Positions 1-60,138 of a stretch of 64,000 nt of DNA are shown one piece after another. This stretch comes from Squalus acanthias (lineage: Eukaryota): assembly GCA_030390025.1 (NCBI GenBank), contig CM059431.1, positions 117,678,001 to 117,742,000 on the forward strand. The letters are read 5' to 3'. The translations under genes and the position numbers were made by a program. The notes beneath the pieces are model-generated. The model did no database searches. It saw only the letters and a program-made list of their open reading frames with translations, and had not been told where the DNA came from. Within the stretch, counting starts at the first letter, position 1, and the number at the start of each line of letters is the position of its first letter.

Positions 1-1070
1 GTTCAACCTCCGTCACCTCCAGTCCAGATCCAAGGTCGTCCCATCCTCTGTCGTCGAATTACAGTATGCAGACGACGCTTGCGTCTGCACTCACTCGGAG
101 GTCGAACTCCAAACCATCGTCAACACCTTCACCGAAGCGTACGAGAGCATGGGCCTTACACTAAACATCCGTAAGACAAAGGTCCTCTACCAACCTGAAC
201 CACCACACAGTACTGCCCCCTGATTATCAAAATCCACGACAAGGCCTTGGACAACATGGACCACTTTCCATACCTCGGGAGCCTACTGTCAACAAGGGCA
301 GACGTCGACGACGAAGTCCAACACCGCCTTCAGTGTGCCAGTGCAGCCTTCGGTCGCCTGAGGAAGAGAGTGTTTGAAGACCAGGACCTCAAACCCGGCA
401 CTAAGCTCATGGTCTACAGAGCAGCAGTGATACCCACCCTGCTGTATGCCTCAGAGACATGGACTATGTACAGCAGGCACCTCAAAGCACTGGAGAGGTA
501 CCACCAGCGCTGCCTCCGCAAGATCCTGCAAATCCATTGGCAGGATAGGCGCACCAACGTCTGTTTTCTTGCTCAGGCCAACATCGCCAGCATCGAAGCT
601 TTGACCACACTCGATCAGCTCCGATGGACGGGTCACATTGTCCGCATGCCCGATACAAGACTCCCAAAACAAGCGCTCTACTTGGAGCTCTGGCACGGCA
701 AGAGAGCCCCAGGTGGGCAGAGGAAACGCTTCAAGGACACCCTCAAAGCCTCCTTGAAAAAGTGTATCATCCCCACCGACACCTGGGAATCCCTGGCCCA
801 AGACCGCACAAAGTGGAGGAGAAGCATCCGGGAAGGCGCCGAACACCTCGACTCTCTTCGCCGGGAGCAAGCGAAAGCCAAGCGCAGGCAGCGCAAGGAG
901 CGCACGTCAACCCAAGCACCCCACCCACCTGCCCCTTCAACCACCGTCTGCCCCACCTGTGACAGAGACTGTAGGTCCCGCATTGGACTCATCAGTCACC
1001 TGCAAACTCATTTTTAATGTGGAAGCAAGTCATCCTCGGTTCTGAGGGACTGCCTAAGAGAAGAGAAGAA
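1..1070 (+). mobile_element. RTE-clade LINE, 3' part (RT, C-terminal zinc finger, short 3' UTR, AAG-rich tail)
   Basis: Frame 2 reads FNLRHLQSRSK...ELQYADDAC (YADD at 65-76). After one frameshift near 220, ORF 247-1017 has RTE-typical motifs (YLGS, LYASETW, QLRWTGH, GGQRKRFKD) and a C-terminal CPTC...H...H. Tail is aagagaagagaagaa. Confidence 0.92.
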
Positions 1071-1372
1071 AGGTACTCCCACAGTGCTGTTAGGGAGGGA
1101 GTTCCAGGATTTTGACCCAGCGACGATGAAGGATCGGCGATATATTTCCAAGCCAAGATGGTGTGTGACTTGGAGTGGAACTTGGAGGTGGTGGTGTTCC
1201 CATGCGCCTGCTGCCCTTGTCCTTCTAGGTGGAAGAGGTCGCGGGTTTGGGAGGTGCTGCCGAAGAAGCCTTGGCGAGTTGCTGCAGTGCATCTTGTAGA
1301 TGGTACACACTGCAGCCACAGTATGCTGGTGGTGGAGGGAGTGAATGTTTAAGGTGATGGATGGGGTGCCAA
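1071..1372 (-). mobile_element. 3' fragment of the tRNA-headed non-LTR family, cut by the RTE insertion
   Basis: Highly similar to ~21703-22005. Translation AAVCTIYKMHCSNSPRLLRQHLP...SWNSLP matches ORF 21628-21951. Confidence 0.85.
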
Positions 1373-1949
1373 TGTGTTGGGGTCACATTCCCCATATTTA
1401 TGTAAAATAACAACTGAAAATGCTGGAAACACTCAGGAGGTTAGGCAGAATATATCTTTAAACATCCCCTCGCCACACTCTCCCACCCATGAATCTGGTG
1501 GTGATGCTGCGGCCCAGGGCGGAACAGCACAAAAATCTCTTTGCCCAAAAAGTTGTATTTCCTTGGTGAAAATGTCTTTAATACATAGTAGAAATCTAAA
1601 TGTAACAAACTGTTGCTTAAAAGAGCAACCTCCTTTCCTTGACTAGTGACCAGTGATGTTGCTGCTTATATCAAAAACATTGGAAATGTACTAAACAGCT
1701 AGGAATGGTCTCACTCTCGTGGCTAGTCTGCCCTGGACAATATTAATAACAGTGTCTTTGGTGTCTGCCTACATATTTGTCATATAGCATGGTCAATTCC
1801 CAGTTCTGTGTCAAACGTAAGCATTAGACAAATGCTTCCCCTTGCATAATCTTATGTTAAGGCAACAGTAAAAATGTTCCAGCGTCCAAAAATATACTAG
1901 ATTATGTCCACCCTCTTGACAAGCAGACAGTACAAATTTATATGAAGCG

Positions 1950-3130: not shown

Positions 3131-4559
3131 TAAGTGTATGATAGTGCATGACAATATTTCGGTTAGTAAAGTGCGGCAGACCAGCAACATAATGAGGTGT
3201 ATCATTCTGATTCACTGTGATTGAGAGGGCTTTCATGCATTTCGGAAGCACTGGCCACTCTAGAGATGAAGCACATATTACAAAAAAGCTGGCATAGCTA
3301 AGCAGTATATCGTAATTTGCTTTGTCTCATGAGATCATTGTAAACATTCATGAAAGTGAGACTAATAGGTAAAACAATAATCCAGAAGAATACCTACAAA
3401 CACTATTAAGTTTGTCTGTGGCAAGAGGGAAGAGGAGAGGTAAAATAAGGGTAATAATGGATATTTTATAATATCTGGGAAAGCCTATCTAAATATTTTT
3501 CCTATTGAAAAATAAATAGTACACATGAGTTAGATACTCAATATATGTTTACATAATATCATCATAGAATCATTGAGTGTCATTAAGTGTTGCACCACAG
3601 AAACCATTCAATTCTGTTCCAGTGTTTTTCTCCCAATGAACAATCAAGTCTAAGCATATTCTGCGACTAGTATTCCCCATACTTTAATGTTCTTGTTTTC
3701 AAGCAACTGTCTAGTTCCCTCATAAAAGTAATTATAAATGCTGCTTTAATAACTTATTATGGCGAAAGAATCCACATTCTAATCAACATCTGGGTAAAGA
3801 AATGTTTTCCAGCCTCTATTTAAATTTTTCTTGCAATTATCCAATCTTTCTTTCCCTCTCTTTATTTCACTTTCTGTACCTGATTTGACATTGAATTCAC
3901 CGGCCGGAATTTTCCCATTGCCGTGTGTGCGGGTTTGGGTCGAGGCAGCGCATTAGGAACCCGTTGTCATCCCGCCTCCTCACACCTTTAACTCGGGCGC
4001 ATTGCCAGCGCGCCACGGACTCAATTGGGAGAGGCTGTCAACTTAATTAAACTCATTAAAAGCTTGTTATTAGACCCTTAACAAGGTTTTTAACAGCAGC
4101 TTCTGAATTTAACGGCATGAGCACAGGAAGCACGCAGCTCGGGAGTCTCGCCTGTGAAGGGGAGGCGGAAGTTCAGTGGCCATTGTGCGAGGGCATTAAT
4201 TGACAGCTGGGAATACCACATAAATACACACACACCTTACACCTCATTTGTTGCCGAAGGGATAGGCTGTTGCTGACTCCATTTTGCGCACAGATTTAGG
4301 TTTCTGGAGTTTGCAGGTCATTTCTGCAACCTCAGAAGCCACTCTCACCACATTGCTAGTCACTATCACAACACTGAGGGATTGGCCCACTGATTGCTAC
4401 GTGACCTGCCATCTACGACAGCAGCATAGGTGCTGCTTATACTGTCTCACTGTGGTCCTCAGAATCGGACCAAGATAAGCCCCACCACCAACAACACCAG
4501 CCACAACACCAGCAGCAGCAGCAACCACAACAGCAGGCTTCTCCTCAAAGACCTGATGC

Positions 4560-5420
4560 TCCACAGGAGAGAGGGGGGCACCACAGGGCTGCAGTGCGCC
4601 AGAGGCGATACCCCCAACACAGGGTATACAGGCAGAGGATGAGCTTCCTGGACATGACTGAGCAGCAATGCTTCAGGAGGCTCAGGCTAACGTGCAAGGT
4701 TGTGGCAGACATTTGTAGCTTATTGGAACAAGACTTGCTGCCCAGAGGTCCTGGTGGACACACCTTGGCAGTGGTTGTCAAAGTCACCATCGCCCTCAAC
4801 TTCATCGCCTCAGGCTCCTCCAGTGATCTGCAACAGACATTTGTGGTATCTCGCAGTCGGCCGCCCACAGATGCATCATGACCAAAGCCATGTTTCACAA
4901 GTCAGACAATTATATCAACTTTGCCACTGATGAAGCCAGTGATACTGAGTGGGCGCTAGGCTTTGCGGCACTGGCTGACTTCCAACAGCTGCAGGGTGTC
5001 ATCGACTGCACACATGTGGCCATAAAGGCACTCCCTCATCACCCAGGAGTGTTTGTGAACAAGGGCTTCCACTCCCTCAATGTGCCGTTCATCTGCAACC
5101 ATAAAAAGATGATTATGCATGTGTGCGCCAGATTCCCTGTCATGACTCTTTCATGCTGCGCCAGTCCACCCTCCCTTAGCTCTTCGCACTTCCAAACAAA
5201 CTTACCGGCTGGCTACTTGGAGACAAGGGCTTTCCACTGAAGACGTGGCTCATGACATCCCTGAAGAGGTCAAGTACTGAGGCCGAGGAGCGTTATAATG
5301 AGAGCCACATTTCCACCAAATGTGTCATAGAACAAGCAATAAGCATGCTGAAGATGCGCTTCAGATGCCTTGACAGATCTGGAGGAGCCTTTCAGTATGC
5401 ACCAGCCAGGGTCTCCACTC
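4560..5420 (+). pseudogene. Harbinger (HARBI1-like) DDE transposase, frameshifted
   Basis: Fragments [44 protein letters not shown] (D), [10 protein letters not shown] (D) and YNESH...[16 protein letters not shown] (E) are spread over several frames. Confidence 0.88.
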
Positions 5421-5599: not shown

Positions 5600-7065
5600 T
5601 GGGGCGATGATGGCCCAAATCAACATTAACATCCCTCCTTGAGAGGAGGTCTATGAGCGCCTGACATCTGTTGTCCACAGCTAGCATGTACTCTCGTGAG
5701 TGGCGCATTTGCTGCCCCATGGAAGATCACATCGTCACCATGGTGGTCCTCATGTTGGGGATGGATTCCTCCATTCTCTGAAAATTTGCAGACATCGCGA
5801 CTGCAAAAGATGCCAGAGCCTCATACAATTGTTGCTGCCCCTCCAAGATCACCCTCTTTCTTGATGGCCCCCCGAGGCTCAGCTTCTGCATGCAGCTCAG
5901 CAGAGCTTGGAGCGTCCTGTGCCCTCCGTCAATGAGTCTCCACCGCTGTCCCTATCAACACCACCTGCTCTTACTCACTTGTGAACTGTGAGACACCAGG
6001 TGACAACTCTACTCTTTGACGCAAAGGACCCATCGAGGTGTGCGTATCTGCGCTGGTGCTGGCTGCGCTTGTGTCTGCTGATGCTGCACCCTCAGAGGCT
6101 GGAGGTTCATCTGAGGAGTCATCTACCTACTCTGGCTGGACAATGGGGGGGGGGGGGGAGGGCGGCAGTTGATGGACCTGTGGGAGAGTAAAGAGATGAA
6201 TTAGAAGTGTTATAATAAGAATGGGTAACATTACCATTATACACATGATGACATTTCACTGGCTGCTGACATCAAGTTACCATGAGTGACTGTTGAATGC
6301 CACGTGGCTTTATGAGATGTGATTCTGTCACCAGGTTGCTGGGATGTGCCCCTCTCTCCATCTCCCACCGCCAGCGTCTCTCGAGCTCACAAAATTTCCA
6401 GAGCCGCCTCCTCTGCTGCTGTGAGATGTGCAATTACTGGAGGGCCACCTCCTGTTCTCTCTCTCTCTCTCTGTTGTTCTGGGCTCTCTTCTCTTGCAAG
6501 GAGAAAAAGAAGAGAAGTTTGAGTGAGAGTGATGGAATGAGTGTAAGGAATGGATAGGCTACTATGAGGGAGTGGGGTGCTACATACTCATATCCCCATC
6601 TGACTAACTACTCCTCACACTCACCCTCCTTCTAATGCAATCATTGCATTAGAATGAGGGTGAGTGTGAGGGGTAGTTAGTCAGATGGGGATGTGAGTAT
6701 GTACTTAGAGAGAGAGGGATGGGTGGTGTGAGTAATGATGTGCAGGAGTAGGCTTGAGAAGGTAGAGTGATGGGGATGTGTTGACAGGCCCTTCAGGATG
6801 ACAGTGAGTGTGGCATTGTGCGCACCTTTCCTGACCTCATGAGATCATTAAAGTGCTTCCTGCGCTGTATCCAGGTCTGCCTCACCACATCCCTGCTGCT
6901 GACATCCTCAGCAATATCCAACCAGGCACATTTTGTTGCTTGTAGAGGTCTCCTTTGCCCATCAGCAGGGAAGAGGACTTCGCAGCGTGCTCTGACAGCC
7001 TCCACAAGCGTATGCAACGAAGAATCAGAGAACCAGAGTGCAGCCCTCTGCCTTTGGCTATCCAT
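5600..7065 (-). pseudogene. Harbinger Myb/SANT-like DNA-binding gene, spliced (about 3 exons), decayed
   Basis: Exon 1 7065-6826 (FSDSSLHTLVEAV...EVLFP...AWLDIAEDVS...W.Q.RKHFNDL, donor aag|gtgcgc). Exon 2 from ~6492 (EKRAQNNRERERTGGG). Exon 3 acceptor ctctcccacag near 6177. Confidence 0.8.
6581..6702. repeat. Near-perfect ~120-bp palindrome (hairpin) in intron 1 of the Myb/SANT gene
   Basis: tacatactcatatccccatctgactaactac...ttctaatgcaat-c-attgcattagaa...gtagttagtcagatggggatgtgagtatgta, centred near 6642. Confidence 0.9.
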
Positions 7066-7528
7066 CCTTCAAAAGTTTTAGATGTACTGTGGCCTTTCTT
7101 TCACACCTACCACCCTCAACTGAAAACCTTCAAGTGAGTTCAGTGCAAGACTGCTTTAAATATGGGTGCTGGAAACGAGTCATCAATGATGTCATCAGAC
7201 CCGCAGCATTTAATAGGGCCGGGAAACGCGCATGAGTCTTGCAAGTGGGGCCATTAAGTGAAAGTCGCTCTGAGCAGCACGTTGCTCAGAACATCGCGTT
7301 TCAGACCTGCTATGCTGCCTGCATGCTCCCAACCTGACGCAATGGTGAAAATTCAGGCCACCCACTCTAATTCATCCTCCTTCTCAGTCCTACCTCTGTT
7401 TATTTCTCAATCCTTTAATCTCATTGGTTACGGAGATAGATTGTTGGTCCAATCATTCACCAAAGTCCCAGATGCCCTGTTGCCCTTGCCGCGCCGTTAT
7501 CAGCTTGCATTTCCAATGGACAAGGGGA

Positions 7529-9272
7529 ACGGTAGCATAGTGGTTATGCTACTGGACTACTAATCCAGAGGCCTGGACTAATGATCCAGAGGTGTGAGTT
7601 CAAATCCCACCACGGCAGCTGGAGAACTTAAATTCAGTTAATTAAGTAAATCTGGAAGAAAAAGCTAGTATCAGTAATGGTAACCATAAAACTATCGGAT
7701 TGTTGTAAAAACCCATCTGGTTCACTAATGTCCTTTAGGGAAGGAAATCTGCCGTCCTTACCTGGTCTGGCCTATGTGTGACTCTACACCCACTGCAATG
7801 TGGTTGACTCTTAACTGCCCTCTGAAATGGCCTAGCAAGCCACTCAGTTGTAAAAAACCGCTATGAAAAGCAATAAGAATAAAATGGGAAGGACCACCCG
7901 ACATCGACCTTGGCACCGGCTACAGACACGATAATGGCACACACAGCCCAGCCGACCCTGCAAAGTCCTCCTCACCAACATCTGGGGACTTGTGCCAAAA
8001 TTGGGAGAGCTGTCCCACAGACCAGTCAAGCAACAGCCTGACATAGTCATACTCACAGAATCATACCTTTCAACCAATGTCCCAGACTCCTCCATCACCA
8101 TCCCTGGGTATGTCCTGTCCCACTGGCAGGACAGACCCACCAGGGATGCGACACAGTGGTATACAGTCGGGAAGGAGTGGCCCTGGGAGTCCTCAACATT
8201 GACTCCGGACCCCATGAAGTCTCATTGCTTCAGGCCAAGCATGGGCAAGGAAACCTCCTGCTGATTACCACCTTCAGCCCTCCCTCAGCTGATGAATCAG
8301 TACTCCTCCATGTTGAACACCACTTGGAAGAAGTACTGAGAGTAGCAAGGGCACAGAATGTACTCTGGGTGGGGGACTTCAATGTCCATCACCAAGAGTG
8401 GCTCGGTAGCACCACAAATGACTAAGCTGACCGAATCCTGAAGGACATAGCAGCCAGTCTGGGCCTGCGACAGGTGGTGAGTGAACCAACACGAGGTAAA
8501 GACATACTTGACCTCATCCTCACCAATCTAACTGCCACAGATGCATCTGTCCATGACAGCATTGGTAGCAGTGACCACCGCACAGCCATTGTGGAGACGA
8601 GGTCCCATCTTCACACTGAGGACAACCTCCATTGTGTTGTGTGGCACTACCACCATGCTAAATGGGATAGATTCAGAACAGATCTAGCAGCTCAAAACTG
8701 GGCATCCATGAGGCACTGTGGGCCATCAGCAGCAGCAGAATTGTATTCCACCACCATCTGTAACCTCATGACCCGGCATATCCCTCACTCTACCATTACC
8801 ACCAAGCCAGGGGACCAACCATGGTTCAATAAGGAGTGTAGAAGAGCGTGCCAGGAGCAGCACCAGGCGTACCTAAAAATGAGGTGCGAACCTGGGGAAG
8901 CTGCAACACAGGACTACATACATGCTAAAAAGCGGAAGCAGCATGCTATAGAAAGAGCTGAGCGATTCCACAATCAACAGATCAGATCAAAGCTCTGCAG
9001 TCCTGCCACATCCAGTCGTGAATGGTGGTGGGCCATCAAACAACTAATGGGAGGAGGAGGCTCCATGAATGTCCCCATCCTCAACGATGGTGGTGCCCAG
9101 CATGTGAGTGCAAAAGGCAAAGCTGAAGCGTTTGCAACCTTCTTCAGCCAGAAGTGCTGAGTGGATGATCCATATCGGCCTCCTCCTGAGGTCCCCACTA
9201 CCACAGAGGCCAGTCTTCAGCCAATTCGATTCACTCCACGTGATATCAAGTAACGGATGAACGCACTGGATG
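7529..9272 (+). mobile_element. Non-LTR retrotransposon with tRNA-like head and APE endonuclease region; 3' part missing
   Basis: A box tagcatagtgg and B box gagttcaaatcc in the head, followed by EN motifs (PDIVILTES, GDFNVHH, PTRG..ILDL, SDH) in broken frames. Confidence 0.88.
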
Positions 9273-20564: not shown

Positions 20565-21579
20565 CCTTAGACGGATTACAGGAGTGACTATAACCAATGT
20601 ACTTGAAAGAATATCTTAGGCAAGACCCTAAACTGGTCATAAATGCGACTTGAATCCACAACTGACTCTGAGACAAGAGTCCTACAACTGAGCCAAACTG
20701 ACACTTTTACCAGTTGACTACTGCACTGATGAAGAACTACCGCATTAACTTGATGTTAGTGTTTTGGTTTTAACTTACTATGTGATATTAAATTGCAAAT
20801 GACAACAAATACAGAATATACTCATCTACTGCTGTAGTCAGCTTCATGAATTCAAAAGTAAATGTTAGGTGTGATGTACCACAAAATATCTATTCAGTAA
20901 GCATTTGACACATGGTTCATGAATTGTTTATTAAAATCATGGAACTTTGGTTTCAGAAAACTGCCGCTAAAAGAAATAATTACCCAAGTGACTAAAGTTG
21001 CATTTATATGAATAATAAATTCATACTGGACATTATCCTTTAATACTGTGCTCATAAATAGTTAATGGCTGGCAATAATGAATATGCTGTGCCAAGATTT
21101 TTTGAATCAATATTAATAACAATGGTGCCTACGTTTCATTTTATTCACAGATTATATGCAATGCACATTTTTATTTATAATGGTCGCTGTAAATGACATT
21201 TGATGGATGGGCCTGTCTCACTACAATGGTGAACAAACTGGTATATTTTCCTTGTTAATGACTTTCCCTCTGCCAGCAACTCTATCTGATTACCATCCAT
21301 CAGCAAGGATGTGCAGTCAACTGTTACTTTTAGCTTTTGAGATTAAAGTGTTCTATTTGTCTTGCTTTCTTATCATCTTTACTTTTTATGTTTTTCATGA
21401 GTTTATTATCTTACCATTAATGTATATATATCTTCTTTCTCCCTGGTTGTCTCCTCTTGCTGGACTACTCCAAGCTTCTCCAGCTCCAAGTTAGTAGAGC
21501 AGGCAACTTCTAACTCCAGCTGCCATTGATATTGTTAGATGGCTGCCAGACTGAGTGCAAGGAAAGCTCAGAGGACATT

Positions 21580-24190
21580 TTTTAAAATTCATTCATGGGA
21601 TGTGGGCATCGCTGGCAAGGCCAGCATTCATTGCCCATCCCTAATTACCCTCGAAAGGTGGTGGTGAGCCGCCTTCTTGAAATACTGCAGTCCATGTGGT
21701 GAAGGTGCTCCCACAGTGCTGTTAGGTAGGGAGTTCCAGGATTTTGACCCAGCGACGATGAAGGAACGGCAATATACTTCCAAGTCAGGATGGTCTGTAA
21801 CTTGGAGGGGAACTTGGAGGTGGTGGTGTTCCCATGTGCCTACTACCCTTGTCCTTCTAGGTGGTAGAGGTTGTGGGTTTGGGAGGTGCTGCCGAATAAG
21901 CCTTGGCGAGTTGCTGCAGTGCATCTTGTAGATGGTACATACTGCAGCCACGGTACGTCAGTGGTGGAAGAAGTGAATGTTTAAGGTGGTGGATGGGGTG
22001 CCAATCAAGCGGGATGCTTTGTCTTGGATGGTGTCGAGCTTCTTGAGTGTTGTATTATTAAGGAAATCAAGGGATATGGGGATAGTGCAGGAAAGTGCAG
22101 ATGAGATAGAAGATCAGCCATGATCTTATTGAACAGCGGAGCAGGCTCAAAGGACCAAATGGCCTACTCCTGCTCCTATTTCTTATGTTGTTGGAGCTGC
22201 ATTCATCCAGGCAAGTGGAGAGCATTCCATCACACTCCTTATTTGTACCTTGTAGATGGTGGAAAGGCTTTGGGGGGTCAGGAGGTGAGACACTCACCGC
22301 AGGACACCTAGCCTCTGACCTGCTCTTGTTGCCACAGTATTTATGTGGCTGGTCCAGTTAAGTCTCAGGTCAATGGTGTCCCCCAGGATGTTGATGGTGG
22401 GGGATTCAATGATTGTAATGCTGTTGAATGTCAAGGGGCGGTGGTTAGACTCTTGCTTGTTGGAGATAGTCATTGCCTGGCACTTGTGTGGCGCGAATGT
22501 TACCTGCCACTTATCAGCCCAAGCCTGAATGTCGTCTAGGTCTTGCTGCATGTGGGCATGGACTGCTTCATTATCTGAGGAGTTACGAATGGCACTAACC
22601 ACTGTGCAATCATCAGCGAACATTCCCATTTCTGACCTTATGTTGGAGGGAAAGGTCATTGATGAAACAGCTGAAGATGGTTGGGCCGAGGACACTGTCC
22701 CGAGGAACTCCTGCAGTGATGTCCTGGGACTGTGATGATTGACCTCCAACCACCACAACCATCTTCCTTTGTGCTAGGTATGACTCCAGCCAGTGGAGAG
22801 TTTTGCCCCCGATTCCCATTTTACTAGGGCTCCTTGATGCCACACTTGGTCAAATGCTGTCTTAATGTCAAGGGCAGTCACGCTCACCTCACCTCTGGAA
22901 TTCAGCTCCTTTGTCCATGTTTGGACCAAGGCTGTAATAAGGTCTGGAGCCGAGTGATCCTGGCGGAACCCAAACTGGGCATCAGTGAGCAGGTTATTGG
23001 TAAGTAAGTGTCATTAGGTAGCACTGTCGACGACACCTTCCATCTCTTTGCTGATGATTGAGAGTAGACTGATGGAGCGGTAATTGGCCGGATTGGATTT
23101 GTCCTGCTTTTTGTGGACAGGACATACCTGGGCAGTTTTCCACATTGTCGGATAGATGCCAGTGTTGTAGCTGTACTGGAACAGCTTGGCTAGAGGCACG
23201 GCCAGTTCTGGAGCACAAGTCTTCAGCATGACAGCCGGTATGTTGTCGGGGCCCAAAGCCTTTACTTTATCCAGTGCGCCCAGCCATTTCTTGATATCAC
23301 ATGGAGTGAATCGAATTGGCTGAATACTGGCTTCTGTGATGGTGGGGACCTCAGGAGGAGGCTGATATGGATCATCCACTCGGCACTTCTGGCTGAAGAT
23401 GGATGCAAACGCTTCAGCTTTGTCGTTTGCACTCACGTGCTGGGCTTCACCATCATTCAGGATGGGGATGTTCATGGAGCCTCCTCCTCGTGTTAGTTGT
23501 AGTTAGCAGGAGGTTTCCCCTTGCCCATGCTTGACCTGAAGCCATGAGTCAATGTTAAGGACTCCTAGGGCCACTCCTTCCCGACTGTATACCACTGTGC
23601 CGCCACCCCTGGTGGGTCTGTCCTGCCGGTGGGACAGGACATACCCAGGGATGGTGATGGAAGAGTTTTGGGACATTGGCTGAATGGTATGATTCTGTGA
23701 GTATGACTATGTCAGGCTGTTGCTTGATTAGTCTGTGGGACAGCTCTCCCAATTTTGGCACAAGTCCGCAGATGTTGGTGACAAGGACTTTGGTCGACTG
23801 GGCTGGGTGTGTCGTTGTTGTGTCTGTAGCCGGTGCGGTAGGTCAATGCCGGGTGGTCCCTCCGGTTTTATACTTCTTATTGTTACAACTGAGTGGCTTG
23901 CTAGGCCATTTCAGAGTCAACCACATTGCTGTGGGTCTGGAGTCACATATAGGTCAGACCAGGTAAGTACGGCAGATTTCCTTCCCTAAAGGACAATAGT
24001 GAACCAGATGGGTTTTTACGAAATTCAATAGTTTCATGATCACCATTACTGATACTAGCTTTTTTATTCCAGATTTATTTAATAATTTAAATTCCCCAGC
24101 TGCCATGGTGGGATTTGAATTCACATCTGCTGAAGCATTAGTCCAGGCTTCTGGATTACAAATCCAGTAACATAACCACTATGCTACCAT
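21580..24190 (-). mobile_element. tRNA-headed non-LTR retrotransposon, both ends present, internal deletion in the EN region; CR1 tail inserted at 22053-22185
   Basis: Head matches 7529-7850. RT motifs KALGPDNIP, NYRSISLLS and MFADDCTV. Tail ...cccatgaatgaattttaaaaaa. Deletion junction near 23500. The CR1 insert is flanked by a TGTTG duplication. Confidence 0.9.
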
Positions 24191-24319
24191 TCTGTTTGCC
24201 TACAGTGTCACTCCTCCCTGCATTGCCATAACTCTGCTAAGGGTCACTGAAAAATGGTTTAACATGTGTCCAAATTAGGAAACACTCAGTCACACTTGCT
24301 TATAAATCTGTTACTTCTC

Positions 24320-33965: not shown

Positions 33966-36900
33966 TAGAAACATAGAAACATAGAAGATAGGAGCAGGAG
34001 TAGGCCATTCGGCCCCTCGAACCTGTTCCGCCATTTAATTCGATCATGGCTGATCATCCAAATTCAGTACCCTGTCCCTGCTTTCTCCCGATATCCCTTG
34101 ATCCCTTTAGCCTTAAGAAATATATCTAACTCCTTCTTGAATATATTTAATGAATTGGTCTCAACTGCCTTGTGTTATAGAGAATTCCACAGGTTCACCA
34201 CTCTCTGGGTGAAGAAATTCCTCCACATCTCAGTCCTAAATGGCTTACCCCTTATCCTTAGACTGTAACCCCTGGTTCTGGAGTCCCCCACCATCGGGAA
34301 CATCCTTCCTGCATCTAGTCTGTCTAGTCCTGTTAGAATTTTATAAGTTTCAATGAGATCCCCTCTCATTCTTCTAAACTCTGGTGAATATAAGCCTAAT
34401 CAACCCAATCTCTCCTCATATGTCATTCCTGCCATCCCAGGTATCAGTCTGGTGAATCTTCGCTGCACTCTCTCCATGGCAAGAACATCCATCCTCAGAT
34501 AAGGTGACCAAAACTGCACACAATACTCAAGGTGTGGTCTCACCAAGGCCCTGTACAACTGCAGCAAGACATCCTTGCTCCTGTATTCGAATCCTCTCGC
34601 TATGAAGGCCAACATACCATTTGCCTTCTTAACCGCCTGCTGCACCTGCATGCTTACCTTCAGCGACTGGTGCACAAGGACACCCAGGTCTCGTTGCACT
34701 TCCCCTTTTCCCAATCTATTGCTGTTCAGATAATAATCTGTCTTCCTGTTTTTGTCACCGAAGTGGATAACCTCGCATTTATCCACATTATACTGCATTT
34801 GCCACGCTTCTACCCAATCACCCAACCTGTCCAAATCATACTGGAGTTTCTCTGCATCCTCCTCACAGCACACACGCCCATCCAGCTTTGTGTTGTCTGC
34901 AAACCTGGAGATATTACATCTAGTTCCCTCGTCTAGATCATTTATATACATTGTGAATAGCTGGGGTCCTAGCACCGATCCCTGCGGTACCCCACTCGTC
35001 ACTGCCTGCCACTCGGAAAAAGACCCGTTTATTCCAACTCTTTGCTTCCTGTCTGCCAACCAGTTCTCTATCCAAGACAGTACCTTACCCCAATCCCGTG
35101 TGCTTTAACTTTGCATGCTTATCTCTTATGCGGGATCTTATCGAAAGCCTTCTGAAAGTCCAAATACACCACATCCACTGGTTCTCCCTTATCTATTCTA
35201 CCAGTTACATCCTCAAAAAATTCCAGTCGATTAGTCAAGCATGATTTACCTTTTGTAAATCCATGTTGACTTTGTCCGATCCTGTCACTGTTTTCCAAGT
35301 GCTCTGCTATTACATCTTTTATAATGGACTCTAGCATTTTCCCCACTACCGATGTCAGACTTACTGGTCTGTAATTCCCCGTTTTCGCTCTACCACCTTT
35401 TTTAAATAGTGGGGTTACATTAGCTACCCTCCAATCCATGGGAACTGTTCCAGAGTCTATAGAATTTTGGAAGATGACCAGCAATGCATCTACTATTTCT
35501 AGGGCCACTTCCTTAAGTACCCTAGGATGTAGATTATCAGGCCCTGGGGATTTATCAGCCTTCAATCCCGTCAATTTCCCTAACACCATTTCCTTACAAA
35601 TACTGATTTCATTCAATTCCTCCCTCTCATTAAACCCTATGTTCCCCGACATCTCTGGGAGGTTATTTGTGTCCTTCTTTGTGAAGACAGAACCAAAGTA
35701 TGTATTTAATTGGTCTGCCATTTCTTTGTTCCCCGTTATAAATTCCCCTGATTCTGACTGCAAGGGACCTACACTTGACTTCACCAATCTTTTTCTCTTC
35801 ACATATCTATAGAAGCTTTTAAGTCCGTTTTTATGTTCCCTGCAAGCTTACTCTCATAATCTATTTTCCCCCTCTTAATTAATCCCTTTGTCCTCCTTTG
35901 CTGAATCCTAAACTGCTCCCAATCCTCAGGTTTGCTGCTTTTTCTGGCCAAATTACATGTCCTCTCCTTGGATCTCATGCTATCCCTAATTTCCCTTGTT
36001 AGCCATGTTTGAGTCACCTTTTTTGTTTTATTTTTATGCCAAACTGGGATGAACAAATTCTGTAGTTCATCCATGCGATCTTTAAATGTTTGCATTGCCT
36101 ATCCACCATCAACCCTTTAAGTAACGTTCCCCAATCCATCCTAGCCAACTTGTGCCTCACACCATCGTAGTTTCCTTTATTTAAATTCAGGACCCTAGTC
36201 TCTGAGTCAACTACTTCACGCTCCATTTTAATGATGAATTCTATCATATTATGATCGCTCCTCCCCAAGGGGCCTCGCACAACAAGAATGCTATTTAATC
36301 CTTTCTCATTACATAATACCCAGTCTAAGATGGCCTGATCTGTAGTTGGTTCCTCGACATATTGGTCCAGGAAACCATCCGTATACAGTCTAGGAATTCC
36401 TCCTCCACAGTATTGTTACTAATTTGGTTAGCCCAATCTATATGTAGATTAAAGTCACCCATGATAACTGCTGTGCCCTTATCGCACGCGTCTCTAATCA
36501 TCCGTTTAATGCCACCCTCAACCTGAGCATTACCGTTTGGGGGTCTGTATACAACTCCCACTAACGTTTTCTGCCCCATGGTATTTATCAGCTCTACCCA
36601 TACAGGTTCCACATCATCAGAGCTAATATCCTTCCTTACTATTGTGTTAATCTCCTCTTTAACCAGCAATGCTACCCCACCTCCTTTTCCTTTTTGCCTG
36701 TCCTTCCTGAATATTGAATACCCCTGGGTGTTGAATTCCCAGACTTGGTCATCCTGGAACCATGTCTCCGTATTCCCAATTATATCATATCCATTTACAT
36801 CTATTTGCGCAGCTAATTCATCCACCTTATTATGAATGCTCCTCGCATTAAGACACAAAGCCTTGTTTTTTTAACACTCTTATTCCTTTTAGAATTATTA

Positions 36901-38010
36901 TTTACAGTGGCCCTGTTTGATTTACAGCCTTGATTTCTTTGCCTCCCACTTTTGCTTTTCTGCTTCCTGTCTTTTGTTTCTATCCTTGCTTCCCTTTCCT
37001 CTGTCTCCCTACTCAGGTTCCCAACCCCCTGCCATTTTAGTTTAAACCCTCCCCAACAGCACTAGCAAACACTCCCCCTAGGACATCAGTTCCGGTCCCG
37101 CCCAGGTGCAAACCGTCCAGTTTGTACTGGTCCCACCTCCCCCAGAACCGGTTCCAATGTCCCAGGAATTTGAATCCTCCCCCTTGCACCATTCCTCTAG
37201 CCACATATTCATCTGAAATATCCTTCTATTTCTACTCTGACTAGCACGTGGCACTGGTAGCAATCCTGAGATTACTACCTTTGAGGTCCTATTTTTTAAT
37301 TTACCTCCTAACTCCCTATATTCAGCTTTTAGGACCTCATCCCATTTTTTTACCTATATCGTTGGTACCTATATGCACCACGACAACTGGCTGTTCACCC
37401 TCCCCCTCCAGAATGCCCTGCAGCCGCTCCGAGACATCCTTGACCCTTGCACCAGGGAGGCAACATACCATCCTGGAGTCTCGTTTGCGGCTGCAGAAAC
37501 ACCTATCTATTCCCCTTACAATAAAATTCCCTATCACTATAGCTCTCCCGCTTTTTTTCCTCCCGTCCTGTGCAGCAGGACCACCCATGGTGCCAGGAAG
37601 TTGGCTGCTGCTGCCTTCCCCCGATAAGCCATCCCCCTCAACAATATCCATAGTGGTATATCTGTTTGAAAGGGGGATGGCCACAGGGGTCCCTTGCACT
37701 ACCTGCCTGCGCCTACTACTCTGCCTGGTGGTCACCCATTCCCTTCCTGCCTGTGCAGCCTTTACCTGCAGGTGTGACCAACTCCCTAAACATGTTATCC
37801 ACGATGTGCTCAGCATCCCGAATGCTCCAGTATGTATCCATTCGCAGCTCCAGCGCCACAATGCGGTCTGTCAGTAGCTGCAGCTGGATACACTTCCCGC
37901 ACACATGGTCATCAGGGACACAGGAAGTGTCCCTGATTTCCCATATAGTGCAGGAGGAGCTTGCCACGGGGCCGAGCTGTGCTGCCATGACTTACCCTTT
38001 AATTAATTCA
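33966..38010 (-). mobile_element. Near full-length CR1 LINE: ORF1 (zinc finger + SGNH esterase), ORF2 (APE endonuclease + RT), decayed
   Basis: ORF1 C..W...HVCGKC, AIVIGNFIVRG...LPGARV...HIGTND. ORF2 CLNARSI, GDFN, SDHN, KSPGPD, YLDFQKAFDK, GVPQGSVLGP, FADN (mutated FADD), RPHLEYC. Tail is (tttctatg)n on the minus strand. Confidence 0.95.
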
Positions 38011-40412: not shown

Positions 40413-42247
40413 AACAACAACAACAACTTGTAGTTATATAGCGCCTTTAACGTAGTAAAACGTCCCAAGGCGCTGCACAGGTGTATTTTAAGACAAAAAA
40501 TTTGACACCGAGCCACATAAGGATAAATTAGGGCAGGTGACCAAAAGCTTGGTCAAAGAGGTAGGTTTTAAGGAGCTTCTTAAAGGAGGAAAGAGAGGTA
40601 GCAAGGCGGAGAGGTTTAGGCAGGGAATTCCAGAGCTTAGGGCCTAGGCAACAGAAGGTGCGGCCACCAAAGGTTGAGCGATTATAATCAGGGATCCTCA
40701 AGAGGACAGAATTAGAGGAGCGCAGATATCTCGGGGGGTTGTGGGGCTGAAGGAGATTACAGAGATAGGGAGGGGCGAGGCCATGGAGGGATTTGAAAAC
40801 AAGGATGAGAATTTTGAAATAGAGGCGCTGCTTAACCGGGAGCCAATGTAGGTCAACGAGCACAGGGGTGATGGGTGAATGGGACTTGGTGCGAGTTAGG
40901 ACACAGGAAGCTGAGTTTTGGATGACCTCAAGTTTACATAGGGTGGAATGTGGGAGGCCAGCCAGGAGTGCGTTGGAATAGTCAAGTCTAGAGGTAACAA
41001 AGGCATGGATGAGGGTTTCAGCTGCGGATGAGCTGAGGCGAGGGCGGAGACGGGCGGTGTTACGGAGGTGGAAGTAGGCGGTCTTTGTTATGCTGCGGAT
41101 ATGTGGTCAGAAGCTCATTTCACGGTCAAATATGACACCAAGGTTGCGAACAGTGTGGTTCAGCCTCAGACAAATGTTAGGGAGAGGGAAGGATTCAGTG
41201 GCTAGGGAACGGAGTTTGTGGTGGGGACCGAAAACAATGGCTTCGGTTTTCCCAATATTTAATTGGAGAAAATTTTTGCTCATCCATAACTGTATGTCGG
41301 ACAAGCAGTCTGACAATTTAGACACTGTGGAGGTTTCGAGAGAAGAAGTAGTGAGGTAGAGCTGGGTGCCGTCAGCGTTCATGTGGAAACTGACGCTGTG
41401 TTTTCGGATGATGTCGCCAATTGGCAACATGTAGATGAGAAATAGGAGGGGGCCAAGGATAGATCCTTGGGGGACACCAGAGGTAACGATGTGGGAGCGG
41501 GAAGAGAAGCCATTGCAGGTGATTCTCTAGTTATGATTAGATAGATAAGAATGGAACCAGGTGAGTGCAGTCCCACCCAGCTGGACGACGGTGGAGAGGC
41601 GTTTGAGACGGATGGAGTGGTCAACCGTGTCAAAAGCTGCAGACAAGTCAAGAAGAACGAAGAGGGATAGTTTACCTTTGTCACAGTCACAAAGGATGTC
41701 ATTTGTGATGTTGATGAGAGCCGTTTCGGTACTGTGGCAAGGGCGGAAACCTGATTGGAGGGATTCAAACATGGAGTTGTGGGAAAGATGGGCACAGATT
41801 TGGGAGGCAACAACACGTTCAAGGACTTGAGAGGAAAGGGAGTTTGGAGATGGGGCGGTAGTTTGCAAGGACGGAGGGATCAAGGTTTGTTTTTTTGAGG
41901 AGGGGGTGATGATGGCAGATTTGAGGGAGAGGGGGACAGTACCTGAGGAGAGAGAACCGTTAACAATATCAGCTAACATGGGAGCCAGAAAAGGAAGTTG
42001 GGTGGTCAGCAATTTGGAGGGAATAGGGTCGAGGGAGCAGGTGGTAGGTCTCATGGACAAGATTAGCGCAGAGAGGTCATGAGGGGAGATCGGAGAGAAA
42101 CTGGAGAAAGATGCGAGTTCAGGGCTAGGGCAGGGGGGAACCTTAGAGGAAGTTTGGCCCAGTGGGCTAGGGGAAGGAAGGGATGTGGCAGAGGCAGCTG
42201 AATGGACGGTCTCAATCTTAAAGACAAAGAAGTCCATGAGCTCCTCA
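40413..42247 (-). mobile_element. L2 LINE, 5'-truncated
   Basis: LDPIPSKLL, QSGFRPCHSTETAL, LLDLSAAFDTVDH, LHWLPV and FKKLLKTYLF, with a (GTT)n tail. Confidence 0.92.
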
Positions 42248-44159
42248 TATATACAACATATATTATGTTACATTTCTTTTATGTAATGAGACTCACAAAG
42301 TAGCAGCTTTGAATTAACTTTTAAGTTTTTTTCAAAGTACGTACTATGTTTGCATTACCAGCAAGTAATTTTGTGAGTGCTGTTCAGCATTGATTATTCC
42401 TGGCTTTATCTTACATTGCCAAATTGCTCTCTGCATGAAGTAACTGCTTCATGGTGTTATAACACTGAATCCATGTGTTAGAGCTGTTGAGCTGTTAATT
42501 CCCTCAATTGGTATTTAAATGTATCACACACACTACTCTAAAACTCTCACATTGCACTTGTGTTGCTCTCAAACCTACAGCACATCAGTGATGACAGGCA
42601 GCTTAGTTTCATGGCCAGCAGGGCAGCAACTTAAGTAGTGAGAAAGCACTTTGACTGTGGTCAGAACAGAACGGAAATTGGATTCCGTGCACCTCTCGCA
42701 CTGCCTTTGCAGAAGATGAGAATCAGTAAAGTTGAAGGCCGCAGAAGGCAAAGAGTCAGATCTGCCAGAAACCTATGCAACAGATATACTACCGCAGACA
42801 CAGCTGCCTGTAATGGAAAGAGGTACAAAGTTTCAGGAGTCTATGACTAAGTTGGGAGCTAGTGACAGACCTGTGCAATGTGCTGCAAGAAAATCAGCAG
42901 GCTCAATCCAACACCAATATAATCTATGAATGACAGTAAAAATTATTACACCACCAAAATTCTATGCATCACATACAGTCCTTCCATTGCTGTACTACTG
43001 ATATTGCCAAGCTTAAATCCAACAGTAAGATTACATATGCTTCATTCTACCATGTTAACACTTTCATCCAATTTAGCATGGTCGAATAGTACATTTTTAC
43101 CACACTGCTGTCTTCCTAAGAGTGCAGGGAATCATCGACTGTACCCATGTTGCTTTTATTTTCTCACAATGTCATGCCATACATGAATTGAACAGGCTTC
43201 ATAGTTGCATAACAACTACCAACACAGAATAATGTAGATCGATCCCTGTTTATCAAAAAGCTCCCACAGTGCCTTTGTGGGGGTGCAGTAAATATGATTT
43301 GCCACAAGGCTTTCCTCTTCTGTCTGCACCCATCACAGCATCTAACTGCCTCCAGAATAATTGCAGAGGTTTTGCCTTCACTACTCTATCCAGAAGGCCT
43401 TTCACGGTATTAATTCCTCTTAAGTGGCTTCTGATTTAGTTCTGAACTCACTTTTACCTAATGTCCTCTTGTCTGTAACCATGAGGGGTAAGGCAAGACT
43501 CCTGGCGTGGAAATTCATCACCAGGATTGTCGATCAGGGAATCGGGAATTCTGCTAATCTCCACACCCTATTCTTCAATTCAACATCTCGTAAAATTTGC
43601 TCTATAGTTTAACGTAAACTAGTCCTCCAAATTAAGCTTAATTTAGATATCTCAATAAGGTCACTTCTTATTGGCCTCCTTTCAAGTCTAATAAGTCTGA
43701 GTTTTTCTATCCTTTCTCCATTAATCAATCCTCTGGCTGCAGCTGATTGACCTTTCTATCCACTCCTAATGACTGGAAAATCACAATGCCATGAATCTGG
43801 AATACTGACTTCCATGCCTGATTCTCTGATCCGTTCTCACATCAAGTGAAACCCAGTACTGGGAGTATAATTATTGCAAATTTAACCCAAGTTTTACTGA
43901 TTTGGCTATGCAACTCAGTCTTCTCTTTGTTTTTTTCCCTCATAGAACAAAAAGATATAGTGGCTGGCTGCATGGCTTCTTTATGAATGTGATGGGATTG
44001 CAATGGCACAAGACCTTTATGCACTGAGGAATCAGAAGGCCCTACATCTAAGTCAGCCATGTTAGATGTTGTTCCAGATTCCTGGTCCTGCATGCTTCCC
44101 AGCACATCAACTGTCGCTTGTTCAATGGTTCCTGACAGTACAGATTTATTGTTGTAATA

Positions 44160-50866: not shown

Positions 50867-52907
50867 ACGATAGCAAAATACTGCGGATGCTGGAAATCCG
50901 AAATAACAACAGAAAACGCTGGAAAAACTCAGCAGGCCAGGCAGCATCCGTGGAGAGAGAAAGAGAGTTAACGTTTCAGGTCGATGACCTTTCATCAGAA
51001 CTGGGAAGAGCCGGAAATCAAATAGATTTAAGGCCAGGGTAAAGCTGGGAAAAGGGGGAGGGGATAAAGGAACAAAGGTGGAGATGAAGAGACATTAATA
51101 GACATTAAGAGATATGCAAGGCTAGAGGTGGTGTTAATGTAACAGATTAAGGCTGAATGAAGTGTGAAATCCACTGGCAGAATGAAGGACAGCTGCCAGC
51201 TTCTAGGAGGAAAAAAAAGGTGGGGGGGGACAAATAAAAGGGTGGATAAAATAAAATATAAATGTGATTGGAGCTGAGGTTATGATCTAAAATTGTTGAA
51301 CTCGATATTGAGTCCAGAGGGCTGTAGCGTGCCTAAACGAAAGATGAGGTGCTGTTCCTCGAGCTTACGCTGAGCTTCCGTGGAACAGTGTAATAGGCCA
51401 AGGACGGTGAGGTCAGAGTGGGAGTGAAGCGGTGAATTAAAGTGACAGGCCACCGGGAGCTCGGGGTCCCCCTTACGGACTGAACGGAGGTGTTCCGCAA
51501 AGCGGTCACCCAATCTGCGTTTGGTCTCCCCAATGTAGAGGAGTCCACATCGTGAGCAGCGAATACAGTATACTAAATTGCAGAAAGTACAAGTAAATCG
51601 CTGTTTCACCTGGAAGGGGTGTTTGGGGCCCTGGACAGTGGGAAGAGGGGAGGTATAAGGGCATGTGTTGCATCTCCTGTGCGTGCACGGGAAGGTGCCG
51701 GGCGAAGGGGAAGGGGTGCTGGGGGTGGTAGAGGAGTGTCGCGGAGGGAGCGGTCCCTACGGAATGCTGAAAGGGGAGGTGAGGGGAAGATGTGTTTGGT
51801 GGTGGGATCACGCTGGAGGTGGCGGAAATGGCGGAGGATGATCCGTTGAATGTGGAGGCTGGTGGGGTGAAAGGTGAGGACAAGGGGAACCCTATCGTGG
51901 TTCCGGGAGGGAGGGGCAGGGGTGAGGGCAGATGTGCGGGAGATAGAACGGACACGGTCGAGGGCAGTGTCGACCACGGTAGAGGGGAATCCTCGGTTGA
52001 GGAAAAAGGAAGACATGTCAGAAGCACTGGTATGGAAGGTGGCATCATCAGAGCAGATGCGGCGGAGACGGAGAAACTGGGAGAATGGAATAGAGTCCTT
52101 ACAGGAGGCGGGGTGGGAGGAAGTGTAGTCCAGGTAGCTGTGGGAGTCGGTGGGCTTGTAGTGAATGTTAGTCAATAACCTATCCCCAGAGATGGAGATG
52201 GAGAAGTCGAGGAAGGGAAGGGAAGAGTCGGAGATGGACCATGTGAAGGTGAGGGAAGGGTGGAAATTGGAAGCATAGTGAATGAAATGTTCTAGTTCAG
52301 GGCGAGAGCAGGAGACGGCACCGATACAGTCATCAATGTACCGGAAAAAGAGGTGAGGGAGGGGACCCGAGTAGGACTGGAACAAAGAGTGTTCCACATA
52401 TCCCACGAAAAGGCAGGCATAGCTAGGACCCATGCGGGTACCCATAGCAACACCTTTAATTTGGAGGAAATGGGTAGAGTCAAAGGAGAAGTTGTTCAAT
52501 GTGAGAACAAGTTCAGCCAGGCGGAGGAGGGTGGTGGTGGATGGGGACTGGTTGGGCCTCTGTTCAAGGAAGAAGCGGAGCGCCCTCAGGCCATCCTGGT
52601 GGGGAATGGAGGTGTAGAGGGATTGTACGTCCATAGTGAAGAGGAGACGGTTGGGGCCGGGAAACTGGAAACTGTTAAAATGGCGGAGGGCATCGGAAGA
52701 GTCGCGGATGTAGGTGGGAAGAGACTGGACAAGGGGAGAAAAAATAGTGTCGAGATAGGAAGAGATAAGTTCCGTGGGGCAAGAACAGGCTGAAACGATG
52801 GGTCTACCGGGGCAGTCCTGTTTGTGGATCTTGGGAAGGAGGTAGAAGCGGGCTGTGCGGGGTTGGGGAAACTATGAGGTTGGCGGCCGTGGGGGAAAGA
52901 TCTCCAG
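50867..52907 (-). mobile_element. Penelope-like element (RT + GIY-YIG endonuclease), 5'-truncated
   Basis: MDVQSLYTSIP, KGVAMG, FRYIDD, LPFLD and LVYCIRCSRCGLLYIGET. 13-bp TSD agtaagtgctatt at 50854-50866 and 52908-52920. Confidence 0.95.
50966..51002 (-). ncRNA. Minimal type I hammerhead ribozyme motif in the Penelope terminus
   Basis: Minus strand: AGTT-CTGATGA-A-AGGTC-ATC-GACCT-GAAACGTT-AACT. This gives stem I (AGTT/AACT), an intact core, stem II and a palindromic ACGT stem III. Confidence 0.65.
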
Positions 52908-57232: not shown

Positions 57233-57235
57233 TAT

Positions 57236-58435
57236 AACAACAGAAAATGCTGGAAAAACTCAGCAGGCGAGGCAACTTCCGTGGAGAGAGAAACAGAGTT
57301 AACGTTTCAGGTCGAAACCCTTCGTCGGAACTGAGAGAGCAAGAAATAAACAGATAAAAATGCAAGGGGGAGGCTGGGGGGAGGAATAAAAGAACAAAAG
57401 GGATGGTCTTTAGTGAGTAGAGACATTGAGAGATGCTCAAGGCAAGACGAGATGGTAATGGGACAGGTTGAGAAACAAAAGGTAAGGTGTGAAATGCTGG
57501 CAGAATCAGAGACAGCTGCCGTGGGGGGAGAGAGAGAAAAAAAGGAAAAAGGCACGGACCAAAAGAGTGGATAAAATGTGTACATATGTGCTAGAGGCCG
57601 GGGTTATGATCTGAAATTGTTGAACTCGATATTGAGTCCGGAAGGCTGTAAAGTGCCTAAACGGAAGATGAGGTGCTGTTCCTGGAGCTTACGCTGCGCT
57701 TCCGTGGAACAATGCAAGAGGCCGAGGACGGTGAGGTCTGAGTGAGCGTGGAGGGGTGAATTAAAATGACAAGCGACCGGAAGCTCGGGGTCACCCTTCC
57801 GGACTGAACGGAGGTGTTCCGCAAAGCGGTCACCCAATCTGCGTTTGGTCTCCCCAATGCAGAGGAGACCACATCGTGAGCAGCGAATACAGTATACTAG
57901 ATTGCAAGAAGTACAAGTAAATCGCTGTTTCACCTGGAAGGAGTGTTTGGGGCCCTGGAGAGTGGGAAGGGGGGATGTATAAGGGCAGGTGTTGCATCTC
58001 CTGCGCTTGCACGGGAAGGTGCCGGGTGAAGGGGAAGGGGTGCTGGGGGTGATAGAGGAGTGGACTAGGGTGTCTCGGAGGGAGCGGTCCCTACGGAATG
58101 CTGAAAGGGGAGGTGAGGGGAAGATACGTTTGGTGGTGGGATCACGTTGGAGGTGGTGGAAATGGCGGAGGATGATCCGTTGAATGTAGAGGCTGGTGGG
58201 GTGAAAGGTGAGGACAAGGGGAACTCTATCGTGGTTCCGGGAGGGAGGGGGCGGGGTGAGGGCAGAAGTGCGGGAGATGGAACGGACACGGTCGAGGGCC
58301 GTGTTGACCACGGTAGAGGGGAATCCTTGGTTGAGGAAAAAGGAAGACATGTCGGAAGCACTGGTATGGAAGGTGGCATCGTCGGAGCAGATGCGGCGGA
58401 GACGGAGAAACTGGGAGAAGGGAATAGAGTCCTTA
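57236..58435 (-). mobile_element. Penelope-like element, shorter copy with intact GIY-YIG-containing C-terminal ORF segment
   Basis: ORF 57604-58350 is open over the segment that is frameshifted in the 50867 copy. Hammerhead variant at 57297-57332. Confidence 0.93.
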
Positions 58436-59472: not shown

Positions 59473-59858
59473 ACGGTAGCATAGTGGTTATGTCACTGGA
59501 CTAGTAATCCAGAGGTCTGGACTAATTATCCGGGGACATGAGTTCACAATCCCACCACAATAGCTGGGGAATTTAAATTCAGTTAATTCAATAAATCTGG
59601 AATAAAAAGCTGGTATCTGTAATGGTGACCATAAAACTACTGGATTGTTGTAAAAACCCATCTGGTTCGCTAATGTCCTTTAGGGAAGGAAATCTGCTGT
59701 CCTTACCCGGTCTGGCCTATATGTGACTCCAGACCCACAGCAATGTGGTTGACTCTTAACTGCCCTCTGAAATGGTGGTTCACCTTCTCAAGTGCAATTA
59801 GGGACGGGCAATAAATGCCTTGCCAGTGACACCCACATTCCATGAACGAATAAAAAAA
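59473..59858 (+). mobile_element. SINE made of the head and tail of the tRNA-headed LINE
   Basis: 59473-59775 matches 7529-7830. 59775-59858 matches the reverse complement of the LINE tail at 21580-21675. Confidence 0.88.
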
Positions 59859-60138
59859 TATATTATTTTTCTAATGCTTAACCATTCAAAATAACCCTTC
59901 ATTGGTAAGTTTTGTTTATTCTGAAGCATTGCAACTTGGTACAGTTTCCACCACATTTTCTTGCAAACTCTGTTGAACATTTTTGGGCCTCTCCTCTCCG
60001 AAGATCACCACTGTTCTCGCACCACTGAAATATTATTAGATGAAAGACGTTGGCCTTACAACCCTATCTGCACAACAGGATTGTTGCAGAAATTGAACTG
60101 TAGCCACCAGTCAGAGGCTGTCAGTTTTCTGTCTGCTC

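Follow-up and report, generated by a model that had tools for sequence, protein, structure and literature searches.

Can a tRNA-like head serve as the promoter of a protein-coding LINE? The question is raised by positions 7529-9272 of a 64,000-nucleotide stretch of Squalus acanthias DNA (the window), where the original prediction saw an endonuclease–reverse transcriptase (EN–RT) retrotransposon that had captured a Pol III-type promoter as its 5' end. LINEs, which code for protein and are transcribed by Pol II, are usually classed apart from SINEs, the non-coding products of Pol III; a Pol III LINE, if true, would unite the two.

Two insertions carry the element. In copy 1 (plus strand), the tRNA-derived head (7526..7611) is followed by a SINE body (7612..7850; 90% over 303 nt vs 59473-59775), which is near-identical across seven published consensuses compared by eye over their first 400 nt, by an A-rich linker of variable length with an Arg-rich N-terminal extension in the endonuclease frame (7851..7961), and by the decayed 5' half of ORF2 with the APE endonuclease and linker (7962..9272; Pfam Exo_endo_phos_2, E=1.5e-5). 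This half has a frameshift near 8150 and stops at 8423 and 9158, and it matches the N-terminus of the relative P0019 (38%, E=4e-14). Copy 1 ends at ~9274, before the RT, and so has no RT and no tail; beyond 9275, the family sequence runs on in other contigs. Copy 2 (minus strand) has its head and body at 23880..24193, placed by alignment to copy 1, and an ORF2 at 21655..23790 that includes the EN start, an RT with a FADD motif and the C-terminus (Pfam RVT_1, E=5e-7; RT region 41% vs P0019). Its 3' tail, a stem-loop and A-tract at 21577..21660, is shared with a third locus (79% over 85 nt vs 59781-59859), and the stem-loop folds at -28 kcal/mol (z=-2.7). The A-tract closes both of these copies and is a poly-A tail, not a microsatellite. 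The ORF2 of copy 2 has an internal deletion of ~770 nt (EN/linker) near 23500 and contains the nested 3' end of a canonical CR1 (22059..22192, plus strand), which reads antisense to the Zenon copy and is accompanied by a duplication of ~6 nt; CR1 was therefore active later than this Zenon insertion. The nested piece, no part of the Zenon family, matches four further CR1 ends of the window at 76-89% identity. A further internal fragment of the family, from the ORF2 3' region, lies at 1070..1373 (minus strand; 91% over 304 nt vs copy 2).

Copies 1 and 2 align at 83% over 752 nt (7527-8271 vs 24192-23496), with a second block at 89% over 232 nt, and their upstream flanks are mutually unrelated, so the claim of two loci with a common head is upheld. 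The insertions given in the original prediction as 7529-9272 and 21580-24190 do share the head, but neither is intact: copy 1 is without RT and tail, copy 2 is deleted and holds the nested CR1, and the two jointly span the entire ~3.3 kb. Both claimed insertions are real, but a third head copy at 59473-59859 had been overlooked. No target-site duplication of at least 6 nt is found at any of the three head-bearing copies, which differ pairwise by ~9-12%. The two tail-bearing copies in the window are both headed and the ordinary 5'-truncated copy is absent, which is unusual for a LINE.

The third copy (59473..59859, plus strand) is coding-free: its head and body meet the last ORF2 codons and the tail across a short imperfect microhomology. 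Judged from its sequence, this one copy may be an HE1-like SINE or a single deletion product. V-SINEs such as HE1 have a conserved V domain of ~80 bp in the body. We take the SINE body at 7612..7850 to be of the V-domain type and the 59.5-kb copy to fit an HE1-type SINE, tRNA-headed and with the tail of its partner LINE; the LINE and SINE of the window are then presumably the HE1/HER1 pair, a V-SINE and a LINE of sharks and rays reportedly described by Ogiwara in 1999 and 2002. Three SINE-body motifs and the term 'HE1' gave no match in the published supplements searched; the available text of one source gives HE1/HER1 as the older name for the shark V-SINE and its partner (PMC3747384). A head-only remnant (58990-59045, minus strand) lies 430 nt from the coding-free copy; it has exact A and B boxes, lacks one of two duplicated arms and is followed by unrelated T-rich sequence. 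Other elements are also present in the window. Just upstream of copy 1, decayed convergent frames at 4405-5240 (plus) and 6790-7070 (minus) resemble what we take to be a PIF/Harbinger transposase and its Myb/SANT partner; the two plus-strand frames in 4405-5240 have no Pfam support. Penelope-like copies with RT and a GIY-YIG endonuclease lie at 50903-52871 (minus) and 57234-58470 (minus), 86% identical over 1.2 kb.

Copies 1 and 2 are assigned to the elasmobranch CR1-Zenon LINE family. Seven published consensuses carry the elasmobranch Zenon label (five species, 2,886-3,314 nt; PMC13343379), and in the first 400 nt, compared by eye, all seven match the head, junction and linker; SquAca_Zenon-1 is the closest to the window element over the first ~400 nt. 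Neither head nor junction is seen by eye in the first 400 nt of the three Zenon consensuses from hagfish and coelacanth. In the available parts of Stuart et al. (2026), Zenon is described from elasmobranchs, coelacanth and hagfish; it invariably lacks ORF1 and ends in poly-A. EN and RT are full length in five species at >84% identity (section 13, Table S3), and in Table S3 the families number as many as 2,313 copies, likely near-full-length and hardly any of them with ORF2 intact (PMC13343379). The element analysed here likewise has a single ORF2 with APE and RT domains (Pfam) and no ORF1. The ~435 nt between the 5' end and the start of EN contain no ORF >35 aa, and the first endonuclease motif, at 7962, lies ~110 nt past the junction, which leaves no room for an ORF1, as had been predicted. 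The absence of ORF1 is a known Zenon trait and hence not new; the loss is older than the head and thus needs no Pol III explanation.

Protein matches at 65-86% identity are from sharks and rays. Among full-length relatives, those nearest to the element consist of one ORF of 935-983 aa each, in several cases on a contig of 3.3-4.0 kb, together with amphioxus and moth proteins. The RT falls into an 18-member clade with the moth and amphioxus proteins (support 0.961 from FastTree, in a tree of 40 of 193 rows without a Zenon-labelled protein), and its identity is 30% to the CR1 and 25% to the L2 of the window. ORF2 fragments of this LINE are contained in shark gene models (P0001-P0014; aldo-keto reductase, LRRC32, ROS-like and others), and in NCBI/UniRef models such fragments likely reflect faulty annotation or exonisation. 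Animal LINEs also make up many GTDB MAG contigs that bear the label Sedimenticola or Ca. Thiodiazotropha (L083-L102 and similar), a case of host contamination.

Whether the head could act as a promoter depends on its boxes and its start. The Rfam tRNA match at 7532-7611 scores 28.8 bits (E=4.6e-4) against a gathering score of 29; neither ARAGORN nor Rfam at gathering level detects the head. In copy 1, an anticodon-arm-like segment is duplicated between the boxes, and the head alone does not fold as a cloverleaf (z -1.0 to -2.1). The expectation of A and B boxes in both insertions holds for the A box TAGCATAGTGG, an exact TRGCNNARYGG match in copy 1 (7533..7543, plus) and copy 2 (24186-24176, minus), but for the B box only in copy 1, where GTTCAAATC (7598..7607, plus; motif 7598-7606) matches GTTCRANNC exactly; the B box is mutated in copy 2 and intact in one of the three window copies. 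The 5' boundary of the element at 7525/7526 falls at about tRNA position 1: 374 contigs have unrelated ends before 7525 and no common upstream sequence (agreement 0.33), a count (run X2) in which SINE and LINE copies are pooled and not separable.

The boxes recur across species. Within the first 400 nt, examined by eye, the head, junction and A box are found in all seven elasmobranch Zenon consensuses, the B-box 10-mer is exact in six and degenerate in stingray, and the spacer between the boxes varies by species while the boxes stay. When six B-box 10-mers were compared with the first 400 nt of ~1,003 CR1-group consensuses, only 6 rows matched, all of them elasmobranch Zenon. Rfam gives a tRNA match in 0/15 related loci. 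A B-box scan of the regions upstream of relatives found 2/79 vs 1.2 expected, with a scan that recovers just one of the three window heads.

A second signature concerns runs of four or more T (T4), the Pol III terminator, whose depletion had been proposed beforehand as a test. The 3,291-nt sense strand contains none vs 5.0 expected (P=0.005, mononucleotide shuffle), counted on a non-overlapping cover from copies 1 and 2 that excludes the nested CR1 as well as copy 2's terminal tract, in which one TTTT occurs. In the same 3,291 nt, A and G runs are as expected and C runs number 9 vs 14.2 expected. Over 920 in-frame codons and under a synonymous-codon null, runs of at least four T number 0 vs 4.26 expected (P=0.0055) and TTT 8 vs 26.8 expected; the Phe codons TTT:TTC stand at 3:19 vs 74:123 in the other two-fold boxes (Fisher P=0.033). 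Among relatives, none of 110 related ORF2 spans (from 160 loci) and none of 114 related ORFs is T4-free, and their lowest TTT ratio is 0.43 vs 0.30 in this family. In the first 400 nt, by eye, T4 is absent from 7/7 shark and ray consensuses and present in 3/3 from hagfish and coelacanth. Single copies are not significant in dinucleotide-preserving shuffles (P=0.49, 0.12), so the signal is one of TT/TTT avoidance. Further LINE copies served as T-run controls (33983-37900, 40418-42267 and 52966-54637, all minus; 199-1017, plus); we take the first of these to be a long CR1 that has an ORF1-like frame further upstream, the next two to be L2-like and the last to be the 3' part of an RTE-like element. 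The headless CR1 of the window is also T-run-poor (3 vs 7.9 expected, P=0.012), and partial depletion is seen in two of five clade relatives (L082, 1 vs 4.9; L081, 28 vs 37.6). The depletion in the headed family is thus the extreme of a wider trend, with zero reached solely there.

Partial depletion outside the headed family lends some weight to an explanation in which the integral head acts as an internal promoter for Pol II, or as a TFIIIC-bound helper of one, capped RNA is made and U-runs are generally avoided in CR1-group coding strands. In the sources as available, Pol II is generally regarded as the polymerase of LINEs (PMC5786205), and swaps of the LINE 5' promoter are common (bioRxiv 2022.11.04.512097; PMC13174262), and in six of the seven consensuses (by eye) an AUG in the +1 frame stands just ahead of EN. 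This AUG, however, is out of the EN frame and is ATA in both window copies, the total absence of T4 has no parallel among the 114 relatives, and the two boxes as well as the start at tRNA +1 are retained across the sharks and a ray of the published set. We therefore regard a capped Pol II transcript as possible but unlikely.

The coding frame raises the problem of translation. The EN frame has no Met in its first 245 codons and 18 in the other 675; a Met-less EN also occurs in 3/61 related proteins. No conserved in-frame AUG lies ahead of the endonuclease in both copies and the compared part of the seven consensuses. Neither 7863 nor 7884 is accepted as a start, since the ATGs there are private to copy 1 and missing in copy 2 and the seven consensuses; position 7863 is ACG in the three Squalus consensuses. 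Initiation at the +1-frame AUG followed by a -1 frameshift was also rejected, as the codon is ATA in both copies and no conserved slippery heptamer was seen by eye. A 2A-like peptide was not seen by eye in three-frame translation, and the linker has no PDB match. In all three clade relatives whose start is visible, a Met in frame lies directly ahead of EN. The head was thus gained, and T4 runs and the AUG lost, on one lineage, the pattern expected from an RNA becoming uncapped. An uncapped 3.3-kb RNA is expected to translate poorly. In the published accounts available, type 2 Pol III promoters can give translated reporter RNA, with output about doubled by TTTT removal (PMC8223928), and ORF1p is dispensable for the retrotransposition of Pol III RNAs (PMC2666806).

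Cap-independent translation would not be needed if labour were divided, with Pol III making the template RNA as a giant SINE and ORF2p supplied in trans by capped read-through RNAs that Pol II makes from some copies. Such a division accounts for the T4-free strand and the conserved boxes, and fits an element without a conserved in-frame AUG in the sequences compared. Yet the read-through RNA would likewise have no in-frame AUG, and an untranslated template should lose its ORF, whereas in the published data available EN and RT are full length in five species at >84% identity (PMC13343379); we consider this arrangement quite improbable.

These readings take the head to belong to the LINE, and it is almost certainly the integral 5' end of this EN–RT element, as the original prediction held in calling it no chance neighbour. 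The head is the fixed 5' end in the seven elasmobranch consensuses as published, and the head–EN junction, whose quoted sequence is confirmed in both copies, lies at the identical base in these copies and the seven consensuses, always before a complete EN. No SINE remainder lies 3' of the copy 2 tail, which argues against LINE insertion into SINEs. Contig depths are similar over head and body, but they are not copy numbers and are given no weight here. A 30-nt junction pattern had no matches in the genome, viral and metagenome contigs searched, no relatives were found in viral contigs, and the raw-read runs X22 (49 reads) and X23 (none) added no information. Site-specific LINE insertion into SINEs or fresh SINE–LINE chimeras like U6-L1 could be read into the coding-free headed copy, into the failure to find a duplication bracketing head and tail, and into known tRNA/L1 chimeras (one-off, mostly half-length and antisense in the available account; PMC13174262), but the same-base junction, the tail without SINE remainder and, more weakly, the lack of another 5' partner among 13 listed of 2,934 loose-end rows make this very improbable.

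How the LINE came by its head is most simply explained by a single capture in an elasmobranch ancestor, since in the first 400 nt of the consensuses the B-box 10-mers are confined to elasmobranch Zenon rows and no tRNA match occurs in the 15 related loci. In bivalves, Zenon LINEs are described, in the source as available, as partners of V-SINEs (PMC11481361), so that donor and recipient RNAs would have met on one enzyme. On balance, we favour an account in which a V-SINE-type head, captured once, would drive Pol III transcription of an uncapped LINE RNA translated without an AUG. In five species, a single unit of ~3.3 kb comprises head, body, EN, RT and stem-loop A-tail. A SINE already using the LINE's tail would have given its head and body once, in an elasmobranch ancestor, by template switch or recombination, leaving other Zenons without a head. 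TFIIIC would then bind the internal boxes and Pol III continue until it meets its first T-run, at the tail or past it; this step is suggested by the conservation of the boxes, by a 5' end that falls at tRNA position 1 and by a sense strand free of T4. Translation is the weakest step: ORF2p may be made from the same RNA by non-AUG, cap-independent initiation in the linker. In CR1-group LINEs, ORF2p attaches to the stem-loop at the 3' end of the RNA, which it then copies by target-primed reverse transcription. Here, ORF2p would do the same with the element RNA, so that every full-length copy would bring its own promoter and coding-free head-plus-tail copies, through the common tail, could move in trans. 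The Pol III transcription and the translation route are proposed from sequence signatures; among the 3,989 contigs obtained from the RNA-like run X15, not one spans the element.

A bolder version, which we hold more tentatively, is that shark and ray Zenon is a self-promoting Pol III protein-coding retrotransposon, in effect an autonomous SINE, that after capture would have purged terminators from an ORF of ~960 codons, given up its AUG for cap-independent initiation and let head-plus-tail SINEs be re-born by internal deletion. If true, a high-copy vertebrate LINE with a type 2 promoter would make a natural long Pol III mRNA, and both uncapped-RNA translation and a link from polymerase choice to the ORF1 requirement would become testable (the latter following the available text of PMC2666806). 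Module exchange from SINE to LINE would be the opposite of the usual direction. Shark repeat libraries probably count these LINE 5' ends as SINEs.

What is known here is the Zenon family and its lack of ORF1; what appears to be new is the tRNA-head promoter architecture, unremarked in the published text available, and a quantified T4 test. Stuart et al. (2026) use none of 'tRNA', 'promoter' and 'polymerase' in the main text, nor 'tRNA' in the supplement portion examined, and the tRNA head, promoter, T4 absence and start-codon problem are all unremarked in these parts (PMC13343379). A tRNA-headed or Pol III-driven shark LINE was not found in a published description, in a search that left Repbase, Dfam and Ogiwara 1999/2002 outside. 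With elasmobranch CR1-Zenon (CarCar, HypSab, RhiTyp, ScyCan, SquAca), the window element shares family, length (~3.3 kb), a single EN–RT ORF and an A-tail, with no structural difference in the published portions (PMC13343379). The Zenon-like LINEs of hagfish, coelacanth, amphioxus (P0030), moth (P0035) and ENA (P0019/P0023) also have a single ORF of ~940-990 aa, preceded before EN by a short, often basic extension, at an RT identity of 39-44%. Unlike the window family, these non-elasmobranch elements have no tRNA head (0/3 vertebrate consensuses, in the part compared, and 0/15 loci) and keep an in-frame AUG and T4 runs.

R2 offers a partial parallel, being a single-ORF non-LTR element with an uncapped non-Pol II RNA and no conserved AUG. 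Its RNA is transcribed by Pol I along with the rDNA and freed by a ribozyme; the element is site-specific, has an RLE endonuclease and carries no promoter of its own. The likeness to the window family lies in the single ORF and the lack of a conserved AUG, and an uncapped RNA is the case in R2 and predicted here. Bipartite LINE-derived SINEs (Bov-tA, RTE/Vingi) combine the 5' and 3' ends of a LINE (Kojima, 2018; PMC5786205). In the available text of that source, tRNA heads were previously found on non-coding SINEs only and the Zenon clade is not listed as bipartite-forming; bipartite SINEs bear the tRNA head on a deleted non-coding LINE, whereas in the window family it stands on a full coding LINE. 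HE1/HER1 of sharks and rays resembles the present case in having a tRNA-headed SINE with the 3' tail of its partner LINE (PMC3747384; PMC4824008). In the reports as available, that pair is described as having a tail in common, whereas the LINE and SINE of the window share head, body and tail.
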